Shown here in pieces: positions 45,745-47,966 of a stretch of DNA of 64,000 nucleotides (position 1 is the first letter of the stretch; every line of letters begins with the position of its first letter). Made by a program: the position numbers and the translations under genes. The stretch is from Myxococcales bacterium (lineage in GTDB: Bacteria > Myxococcota_A > Polyangia > Nannocystales > Nannocystaceae). A model generated the notes under the pieces. That model was not told the DNA's origin and made no database searches. It saw only the letters and a list, made by a program, of their open reading frames with translations. The stretch covers positions 314,730-378,729 of the forward strand of contig JACKDU010000002.1 in NCBI GenBank assembly GCA_020633335.1. Reading direction: 5' to 3'.

Positions 45745-47966
45745 GTGTCCGACGATTCGAAGCCCCAGCAGCCGTGGACCATCCCGTCGCTCGTCAGCGC
45801 TTCGAAGCCCTCGGAGCCGGAGCCGGCGACGACGACCACCCCGGCCCCACCGACGACCCCATCGCCGGTCCCATCGCCGGCCGCAGCCCCGTCGCCGGGT
45901 GGTTGGCAGGTGCCGACGGGATACGCCGGACCGAGCGCTCCCCAGGCTCCGGCGACAGGCTCGACCGGGACCTTGATCGGCATGGTCCCGAGCGCCGCGA
46001 CCTCGCACACGACGGCGCCCGGGAACCCCTTCGCGCGGGCGCCTGCGCCGTCGCAGACGCCATCGCCCCGCCCGGTCGGAGGTCCCTTCGGCCAGGCTCC
46101 GCGTCCGAGCCCGGTCGCGCATCATCCTCTCAACCAGCCGGCTGCGCATCACCCTCTCAATCAGCCCGCGGCCCATCACCCGCTCAATCAGCCCGCGGCT
46201 CATCACCCGCTCAACCAGCCCGCGGCTCATCATCCTCTCAACCAGCCCGCGGTCTATCACCCGCTCAATCAGCCCGCGGCCCACCATCCCCTCAACCAGC
46301 CGGCTGCGCACCCGCTCAATCAGCCCGCGGCCCATCATCCGCTCAACCAGCCGGCTGTGCAGAGCCCCTTCGCTCAGCCGCAGCAGCCCTTCGCACAGCC
46401 CCAGCAGCAGCCCTTCGCGCAGCCGCAGCAGCAGCCCTTCGCGCAGCCGCAGCAGCCCTTCGCACAGCCGCAGCAGCAGCCCTTCGCGCAGCCGCAGCAG
46501 CAGCCCTTCGCGCAGCCGCAGCAGCAGCCCTTCGCGCAGCCGCAGCAGCAGCCCTTCGCGCAGCCGCAGCAGCAGCCCCTTCGCGCAGCCGCAGCAGCAG
46601 CCCTTCGCGCAGCCGCAGCAGCAGCCCTTCGCGCAGCCTCAGCAGAGCCCCTTCGCGCAGCCGCAGCAGCAGCCCTTCGCACAGCCGCAGCAGCAGCCCT
46701 ACGCTCAGCCGCAGCAACATCCCTTCGCTCAGCCGCAGCAACATCCCTTCGCTCAGCCGCAGCAACATCCCTTCGCTCAGCAGCCGCGCAGCAGCCCTTC
46801 GCACAGCCGCCGCAGCAGCCCTTCGCTCAGCCGCCGCAGCACCCCTTCGCTCAGCCTCAGCAGAGCCCCTTCGCTCAGCCTCAGCAGAGCCCCTTCGCTC
46901 AGCCGCAGCAGCAGCCCTTCGCGCAACCGCAGCAGAGCCCCTTCGCACAACCCCAGGCCTACGCGCAGCGCAGCCGCAGCCCTCCCCCGCGAGCCCGCCG
47001 ACGCCGACGCCGGCGACGGGCGATCCCTTCCCCGCGAGCCCGCCGGGCTTCCCGTCAGTCACCGCGCCGACGCCGACCCCCGCGCCGCCCCAGCACGCGC
47101 GCGGCAGCCAGAGCTTCTCGAGCGAGCTCGCGGCGCCGCCGAGCGACGGCCGGACCTTCTCGAGCGAGCTCGGCTCGGTTTCTCTGCCCCGCGGCCAGAC
47201 CTTCTCGAGCGAGATGGTCGGCGCCGACGATCTCCACGACGATCGCCCCGACGCGGTCCTCGGCGAGCGCCGCCGCTGGCCGCTCATCCTCGTCGGCGTG
47301 ATCGGCCTCGGCGCGGTCGGCGTGACGACCGCGGGGATCCTCCATCAGCAGGAGATCGTCGACCTCCCCTGGGTCCCCGGCTTCCTCGAGCACGAGCCCG
47401 AGCCCGAGCCCGCCCCGGTCGCCGAGCCCGAGCCCGAGCCCGAGCCCGAGCCCGCCCCCGAGCCCGAGCCCGAGCCCGCCCCGGCCGCGACCGGCGGCGA
47501 GGCGAGCCCGCCCGCCGGCGAGAGCGGCGCGCCGCCGGCCGCCGGCGATCCGGCCCCGACCCCGGCGAGCGCCGCCGGCTCGACCAAGGCCGCGACCAAG
47601 AGCACCAAGACCAAGAGCACCAAGACCAAGAGCACCTCGAGCAAGGGCTCGACCAAGGGGGACATCGATCCGCTGCCGGCGACCACCTCAAGCTCGGGCA
47701 AGGGCGCCAAGGACTCCGGTCGCGTGATCATGGAGCTCCAGATGCTCAGCCAGGCGAAGAAGTCGCTGGCCTCCAACCCCAAGCAGGCGCTCGCCTACAC
47801 CCAGCAGCACGCCCGCGACTTCCCCGACTCCCAGCTCGTCGAGCAGCGCCTCGAGATCCAGATCCAGGCGCTCTGCGCCCTCGGCCGCAAGCCCGAGGCC
47901 CAGAAGGCGCGCGCGTCCTACAAGAAGTCGGCGAAGCTCGACGCGGCCCTCGCCAAGTGCAAGTAG
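45745..47966 (+). CDS. Pro/Gln/Ala-rich tandem-repeat protein with a single TM helix and a C-terminal helical domain; the reading frame is disrupted (apparent frameshift near 46950-46990 plus two compensating indels)
   Basis: Frame 1 from 45745 gives MSDDSKPQQPWTIP...(AHHPLNQPA)x9...(QPFAQPQQ)n. Frame 0 from about 46980 gives ...TM helix WPLILVGVIGLGAVGVTTAGIL, EPEP and STKTK repeats and a conserved-looking C-terminus ending ...ALAKCK at 47966. All three frames of the repeat region are open. Confidence 0.45.
46118..46975 (+). repeat. Coding tandem repeats: 27-nt (HHPLNQPAA) x about 9, then 24-nt (QPFAQPQQ) x about 25
   Basis: Periodic units read directly, e.g. cagcccttcgcgcagccgcagcag. Indels at about 46573 (cccc versus ccc) and about 46786 shift the frame. 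Confidence 0.8.

Follow-up and report, generated by a model that had tools for sequence, protein, structure and literature searches.

How can a gene whose parts are all recognizable be read only by moving through three frames? The question is raised by a repeat-protein gene at positions 45745–47966 of a 64,000-nucleotide (nt) stretch of a myxobacterial metagenome-assembled genome (MAG; contig JACKDU010000002.1), hereafter the window, where the N-terminal region, the tandem repeats and the C-terminal domain follow one another on the plus strand without a common frame. We find that 45745–47966 is a single gene, orthologous to one that encodes an intact bitopic membrane protein of 722 aa in Polyangia/Nannocystis-type myxobacteria, and comparison of the sequences indicates that its frame breaks are small slippage-type indels in one ancestral open reading frame (ORF). 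We conclude that there was one such ORF because intact orthologs exist and because a repair at three sites restores collinearity with one of them. As to the origin of the breaks, we consider it somewhat probable that they are local assembly or consensus errors in a metagenome-assembled contig; most likely, they are not a mechanism or a regulatory switch.

A profile-guided scan, with one genome taken per species, yielded three syntenic loci (L003, L004 and L005). In L004, from the Polyangia MAG JAUHWG010000011, the ortholog is one ORF of 722 aa (6672..8840), comprising the N-terminus MSNDDRKEPWNIPSLVSG, HPFAQQ and NPLNQPPH repeats, three TFSSEL motifs, a transmembrane (TM) helix, a Glu-Pro (EP) linker and the C-terminal domain. 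The L003 contig begins inside the gene, and the L005 copy, from a Nannocystis MAG, has a run of Ns inside the repeat. A VWA gene lies downstream in both the window and L004, and synteny holds for this gene and for the kinase/TPR gene. The window gene has the hallmarks of the group: an N-terminal region homologous to the N-termini of the L004 and L005 (MANDDPKEPWTIPSLVNG) orthologs, with the motif MS.DD...PW.IPSLV in the frame in which position modulo 3 equals 1 (frame 1; frames 2 and 0 are named likewise); PLNQ- and PFAQ(P)QQ-type arrays between the N-terminus and the TM helix; RRRW followed by the helix itself; LHQQEI..LPW; the EP linker; and a C-terminal domain ending in CK. Its C-terminal half is 61–64% identical to those of L004 and L003, and the TFSSEL motifs are conserved in L004, L003 and the metagenome contig L011. 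The order of the two repeat types is swapped between the L004 ortholog and the window gene. What sets the window gene apart is the absence of a single continuous frame, which is otherwise a trait of the ortholog group: L004 is continuous, while the window needs three changes. We regard the orthology and the ancestral single frame as established.

The same conclusion extends to more distant relatives. A metagenome scan added 15 further loci. Wherever one of these extends into the repeats (L011–L016, L018, L019 and L021), repeats and C-terminal domain share a frame, as they also do in P0006. The C-terminal-domain frame of L001 continues upstream into 8-residue Pro-rich tandem repeats up to the end of the contig. 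With L001 counted in, at least eleven relatives besides L004 (L001, L011–L016, L018, L019, L021 and P0006) have in-frame repeats. The C-terminal half also has metagenome relatives in P0001 and P0002. Neither the unique segment 46980–47385 nor the N-terminal 132 aa had a match in the protein collection searched, which therefore contains no near-identical protein spanning the array. Exact peptides of the window likewise had no match in a scan of GTDB representative genomes, so the source genome is not one of those scanned. A search of that collection with the whole C-terminal 335 aa was dominated by low-complexity words from the EP linker and the Lys/Ser/Thr-rich stretch and gave only two true relatives.

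To follow the frame through the repeats, the FAQPQQ array was cut at each TTCGC or TACGC anchor, which gave a register for every unit and fixed the exact sites of the breaks (table 1). Tandem Repeats Finder reports a period of 27 with 8.7 copies for the AHHPLNQPA array, in which one of the nine units is 8 residues long (24 nt) and keeps the frame, and a period of 24 with 24.3 copies for the FAQPQQ(Q)P array (46366–46946), whose units are 21 or 24 nt long. The 25-nt unit at break 1 ends in CAGCAGCAGCCCC, which is exactly a merger of the two endings that are common among the units, CAGCAGCAGCCC (QQQP) and CAGCAGAGCCCC (QQSP). Break 2 could have originated by duplication of GC in CCGCAGCAG. Break 3 can be described either as the loss of one base from CAGCCGCAG or as a 5-nt duplication of GCAGC; here TACGCGCAGCGCAGCCGCAGCCC (46960 onward) reads YAQRSRSPPPRARRRR in frame 1 and ...AAQPQPSPASPPTPTP... 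in frame 0. It is this last frame that carries the TFSSEL motifs (in the window at 47109–47129, 47151–47171 and 47196–47216, as (S/T)FSSE(L/M)), the TM helix, the EP linker, the Lys/Ser/Thr stretch and the C-terminal domain, up to the stop codon at 47964. Breaks 1 and 2 total +3, so that the frame is restored after 207 nt without a stop being met, and the intervening segment B translates in the N-terminal frame as LRAAAAAA. All three breaks fall within 400 nt, and the other approximately 1800 nt of the gene contain neither a break nor a stop. When only these three sites are edited (one C dropped, one A added and one C added), a 740-aa protein results that is collinear with the L004 ortholog from first to last residue.

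Much of this had been noticed in a first-pass annotation made from the letters of the window. It read frame 1 as nine AHHPLNQPA-type units followed by FAQPQQ-type units, as translation and the unit table bear out, and its +1 indel in a cccc tract at about 46573 corresponds to break 1 and the 25-nt unit. Its +2 indel at about 46786, with an AAAAALRA-type frame between the two and a return afterwards, is break 2 with the 26-nt unit, and the additional shift that it called for near 46950–46990, with the TM helix and C-terminal domain in frame 0, was located as break 3.

Table 1. Features of the repeat-protein gene and positions of its frame breaks (window coordinates; frames as position modulo 3).
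Feature	Coordinates	Strand	Frame and remarks
N-terminal unique Pro-rich region	45745..46119	+	frame 1; GTG start at 45745; begins MSDDSKPQQPWTIPSLVS
27-nt tandem array, nine AHHPLNQPA-type units	46120..46362	+	in frame with the N-terminus
FAQPQQ(Q)P array, segment A	46366..46579	+	9 units; register 1 (unit starts 46369 to 46555)
Break 1, CCCC	46576..46579	+	end of the 25-nt unit starting at 46555; +1; register changes to 2
FAQPQQ(Q/H/S)P array, segment B	46580..46797	+	9 units; register 2 (unit starts 46580 to 46772)
Break 2, CGCGC	46785..46789	+	within the 26-nt unit TTCGCTCAGCAGCCGCGCAGCAGCCC starting at 46772; +2; register changes to 1
FAQP(P)Q(Q/H/S)P array, segment C	46798..46959	+	7 units; register 1 again
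Break 3, GCAGCGCAGC	46965..46974	+	within TACGCGCAGCGCAGCC (46960–46975); -1 (= +5); frame changes to 0
Pro-rich segment with three (S/T)FSSE(L/M) motifs	46969..47276	+	frame 0
Predicted TM helix WPLILVGVIGLGAVGVTTAGIL	47277..47342	+	preceded by RRR
EP linker	47388..47483	+	
Lys/Ser/Thr-rich segment	47580..47660	+	
C-terminal helical TPR-like domain, two conserved Cys, then stop (47964)	47718..47966	+	from alignments

Elsewhere in the gene there is no decay. Of the 51 alignment columns in which five other sequences of the C-terminal domain are invariant, 50 are unchanged in the window and one has a V to L change, and comparison with the orthologs shows neither stops nor indels outside the array. 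Within the array, 27 of 38 minor-base differences among repeat units affect the third base of a FAQPQQQP codon, an excess seen in all three segments and amounting to 12 of 15 in segment B. Segment B therefore diversified while it was read as FAQPQQQP, not as LRAAAAAA. Taken together, the conserved columns, the codon-position-3 variation and the lack of further stops or indels give no sign of relaxed selection outside the lesions, a pattern which suggests that the breaks are either very recent or not real. The surroundings are equally orderly: each of the five neighbours with orthologs in L003, L004 or L005 (about 12 kb together) can be aligned to its counterpart without a change of frame, and a frame scan of all 64 kb by G+C content at codon position 3 (GC3) revealed no other change of coding frame without a stop.

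We then asked what supports the assembly at this place. Five independent short-read contigs from other runs (L006–L010) match the flanks at 99.35–100% identity with zero gaps; their alignments total 9.2 kb and cover about 6.6 kb of distinct window sequence. Divergence of the flanks from these contigs of other samples is about 0.06% in four of the five and 0.65% in L009. The runs SRR15882951, SRR23493591, SRR23493592 and SRR14234051 supplied contigs with at least 99.9% identity to the flanks. The N-terminal region is matched gap-free by L007, L008 and L010, and L007 spans the whole 27-nt array without a gap, confirming the in-frame 24-nt unit. L007 ends at 46394, 28 nt into the 24-nt array, and L006 begins at 47691; the frame-broken stretch is therefore also a stretch without independent support. 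The array defeats almost every other assembly of the gene family: L001, L002, L003, L007, L011, L012, L014, L016, L018 and L021 all end in or near it, and L005 has its N-run inside. In L005, this scaffold gap (about 7100–7250) shifts the apparent frame of the repeat array, and the near-identical contig L011 (2–1336) from the Joint Genome Institute (JGI) reads through the same region in one frame as (AQ[AV])n. With the L005 gap, the gene family offers a second case of an assembly artefact.

The source record is a GenBank MAG with locus-tag prefix H6711, and the contig is 1,178,266 bp long. A contig of more than 1 Mb from a metagenomic organism of 72% G+C implies long reads or bridging by long reads. 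Indels in error-prone long-read consensus sequences are hard to remove and resist short-read polishing (Arumugam et al. 2019, PMC6469205; Liu et al. 2021, PMC8518188). We infer that the breaks are errors of this general kind, which would have arisen at the one place not covered by short-read contigs of the organism. A mixture of repeat alleles from strains living together may have played a part; the 25-nt unit is what would result if QQQP and QQSP alleles had been merged into a consensus column by column, or if a polishing edit over them had been carried out only in part. A chimeric de Bruijn path was rejected as the source of this unit, since the overlap of the two unit types is only about 5 nt. 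In that case the organism itself would produce a normal 740-aa protein or one close to that length, with a short conserved N-terminus, Pro/Gln-rich repeats, three TFSSEL motifs, a TM helix, the EP linker, the Lys/Ser/Thr stretch and a periplasmic TPR-like domain, in that order. In the public record, the gene is probably split, since the GenBank numbering leaves room for two proteins between the DUF1963 protein (MCB9701491.1) and the VWA protein (MCB9701494.1). Neither the 18 candidate ORF products (frames 0 and 1 and the minus strand) nor the repaired 740-aa protein had an exact match in the protein collection.

Several observations weigh against consensus error. It is quite possible, if less probable, that the indels exist in the organism and that we are looking at a recent pseudogene or split gene, in which slippage indels accumulated in a (CAG)n/GCAGC-rich array after, or as, it was inactivated. 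The ORF is, after all, disrupted relative to intact orthologs, and all three lesions (C3 to C4, the GC duplication and the GCAGC duplication) are plausible products of natural slippage. The assembly is otherwise accurate with respect to indels, as judged by the gap-free 9.2 kb of short-read alignments and the lack of any other broken gene; an indel-free remainder of the window suggests that polishing was effective. Sites 2 and 3 are moreover locally unique: no exact repeat longer than 24 nt covers site 2 and none longer than 13 nt covers site 3, and reads of 100–150 nt at these sites have at least 15 mismatches at the best alternative ungapped placement. Short-read polishing should therefore have fixed them, and the idea that short reads simply could not be placed in the array is weakened as a full explanation. 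A de Bruijn assembler cannot create the 25-nt junction, which must therefore have been in the reads. To these points must be added that no independent assembly spanning the array was found. The room for two coding sequences in the GenBank accession numbers counts on this side as well. A pseudogene of this kind would produce from frame 1 a 518-aa soluble repeat protein with an Arg-rich tail. The TM helix and C-terminal domain would disappear, unless translation from an internal start (for example the ATG at 47214) supplied them. What speaks for error over inactivation is the pattern of the damage. Three indels in 400 nt, with neither an indel nor a stop in the remaining approximately 1800 nt, sit poorly with a decaying gene, as do the full conservation of the C-terminal domain and unit variation that still tracks the FAQPQQQP frame; all relatives examined are intact, and with flanks so little diverged, three independent events would have had very little time to occur, barring strong hypermutability of the array.

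Other readings take the breaks to be not only real but harmless or useful. It is quite unlikely that they are simply tolerated, with the compensated +1/+2 pair turning about 69 residues of a disordered linker into an Ala-rich LRAAAAAA block, the product or products still useful and the all-frame-open repeat acting as a buffer against frameshifts. The restoration of frame by breaks 1 and 2 without a stop fits such a scheme, and a region of low complexity that is probably disordered may accept the replacement; however, break 3 still parts the N-terminus from the TM helix and the C-terminal domain, segment B shows no adaptation to being read as LRAAAAAA (its variation is synonymous when read as FAQPQQQP), an Ala-rich block at that position is present in no relative, and openness in all frames is compositional and common to intact relatives. 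A bolder version, which we think unlikely, is that the indels are real and that a frameshift-tolerant, stop-free array swaps one disordered block for another (PFAQPQQ to LRAAAAAA) and, together with break 3, uncouples a soluble repeat protein from a membrane-anchored TPR-like fragment that has its own start; if true, this would be a natural case of alternative-frame peptide innovation inside a bacterial low-complexity region. Very unlikely indeed is a phase-variation switch, or programmed ribosomal frameshifting, that controls production of the membrane-anchored form. Tandem repeats are classical substrates for contingency loci, and the CCC-C quadruplet at break 1 is weakly slippery, a context that allows low-level +1 slippage of tRNA-Pro. 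However, the units of 21, 24 and 27 nt are multiples of three, so a change in copy number leaves the frame intact; homopolymers at the breaks do not exceed C4, correction would be needed at three separate sites, no X XXY YYZ heptamer was seen at break 3 by inspection, and the shifts are not conserved, L004, L011 and more distant relatives all being in one frame. Among the three explanations offered by the first-pass annotation, sequence or assembly error and a pseudogene thus stay viable, and phase variation loses ground on account of the unit lengths and the number of sites.

The openness of the array to translation deserves separate mention, since the first-pass annotation had held that no stop occurs in any frame of either strand. 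For the plus strand this is right: there is no stop triplet in any of the three frames from 45974 to 47299 (1325 nt), the longest of 792 such gaps in the window, with the runner-up at 684 nt. The minus strand was misjudged, as it has many stops within the array (frame 0 at 46374, 46827, 46851 and others; frame 1 at 46639–46777), and near the gene the two strands are stop-free together for at most 343 nt, at 47345–47688, outside the array. The intact copies in L004, L005, L015 and L019 have three-frame-open runs of 774–1093 nt across their repeats. Such openness follows from a T/A-poor repeat of CAG, CCG, GCG and TTC codons in a 72% G+C genome (71.8% in the window); it is compositional and not special to the window copy.

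Setting the breaks aside, we infer the topology and function of the intact protein from its sequence. Topology was taken from the positive-inside rule. The RRR before the TM helix and the two conserved Cys residues of the C-terminal domain suggest a cytoplasmic N-terminus and a periplasmic C-terminus, and the Pro/Gln-rich repeat region (PLNQ and PFAQPQQ units) is presumably cytoplasmic and disordered. No Pfam or NCBIfam model covers the C-terminal domain, and the matches to ClfB, PARP, TonB_N and GltJ in scans against these databases were rejected as low-complexity. The AlphaFold (AF2) model of the domain consists of five helices with a predicted local distance difference test score (pLDDT) of 84, and its best PDB matches are the TPR proteins YbgF, BamD and Tah1, with template modelling (TM) scores of about 0.6 and E-values above 0.1; on the strength of these matches we describe the domain as TPR-like and no more. 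A profile of the domain recovered 5494 cluster representatives at E ≤ 1e-3, in which it is nearly always C-terminal in proteins of 230–900 aa. Distant carriers of the same domain include L013 (3541–6405), L015 (3027–5798), L019 (46–2505), L022, L024 and P0006. Their N-terminal regions show sub-threshold matches to sigma-70 region 4 or extracytoplasmic function (ECF) sigma factors (E about 1e-3 to 1e-4), followed by Pro-rich repeats and a TM helix, an arrangement that may represent a fused sigma/anti-sigma-like architecture.

The neighbourhood of the gene offers further observations. On the minus strand at 40620..43718 lies a Ser/Thr-kinase-like gene with 39-nt tandem repeats at 42453–42579 that encode NPLNQV-type motifs, and its L004 ortholog (2621..5581) has about five NPLNQV motifs. 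The PLNQ core is common to the kinase repeats, the window gene (AHHPLNQPA, 9 units) and the L004 ortholog (NPLNQPPH, 5 units), and judging from these motifs it may be a short linear motif by which the two proteins are linked. Between a lipoprotein-like gene and the repeat-protein gene, the window has a DUF1963 gene (44535–45449, minus strand) that is absent at this place in L004 and L005; the window lineage thus has an extra gene upstream compared with L004, and from its distribution this looks like a lineage-specific insertion. Two other repeats in the window are coding and show no frame break in the GC3 scan: a 189-nt/93-nt repeat of 2.8 copies in a minus-strand gene (60303–60846) and a (GCC)n tract of about 42 copies (56425–56553). 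A plus-strand ORF at 17023..18831 has a GC3 coding signal only to about 17997, and a minus-strand ORF at 18028..18768 carries the signal beyond; the region 17668–18831 probably holds two convergent genes.

Nothing here makes the frame breaks biologically important. Their main value is as a quality flag: the MAG record probably annotates one conserved gene as two meaningless hypothetical proteins, and the same pattern awaits anyone who mines high-GC MAGs for repeat proteins, phase variation or overlapping frames. The gene family is widespread and uncharacterised; its joining of Pro/Gln-rich cytoplasmic repeats, a TM helix and a periplasmic TPR-like domain, next to a Ser/Thr kinase with the same PLNQ motif, provides a modest lead for myxobacterial signalling.

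How does this locus compare with known systems? It resembles simple-sequence-repeat contingency loci in having tandem repeats inside a coding region and a frame that depends on small changes in length. In the phase-variable genes of Neisseria and Haemophilus, homopolymers or units of 2, 4, 5 or 7 nt set the frame by their copy number, whereas the units in the window are 24 or 27 nt long and the frame changes at three unrelated irregularities of 1–5 nt. As a protein, the product belongs with uncharacterised myxobacterial bitopic proteins that have Pro-rich repeats, one TM helix and a C-terminal TPR-like domain. With ECF sigma/anti-sigma-like single-pass signalling proteins it shares a layout in which one TM helix separates an N-terminal part in the cytoplasm from a small C-terminal domain in the periplasm, but the sigma-like N-terminal region is absent from the window protein and its close orthologs, and an anti-sigma domain was not detected. 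As a sequence record, it resembles the frameshift artefacts of long-read and hybrid MAGs (PMC6469205 and PMC8518188), in which small indels split a gene into adjacent ORFs in different frames. It departs from these artefacts in that the rest of the 64-kb window is free of indels and that two of the three sites are locally unique and polishable. The likeness nevertheless extends to the contig of more than 1 Mb, to breaks at the place that is hardest to assemble and to an intact homolog that shows the true frame.

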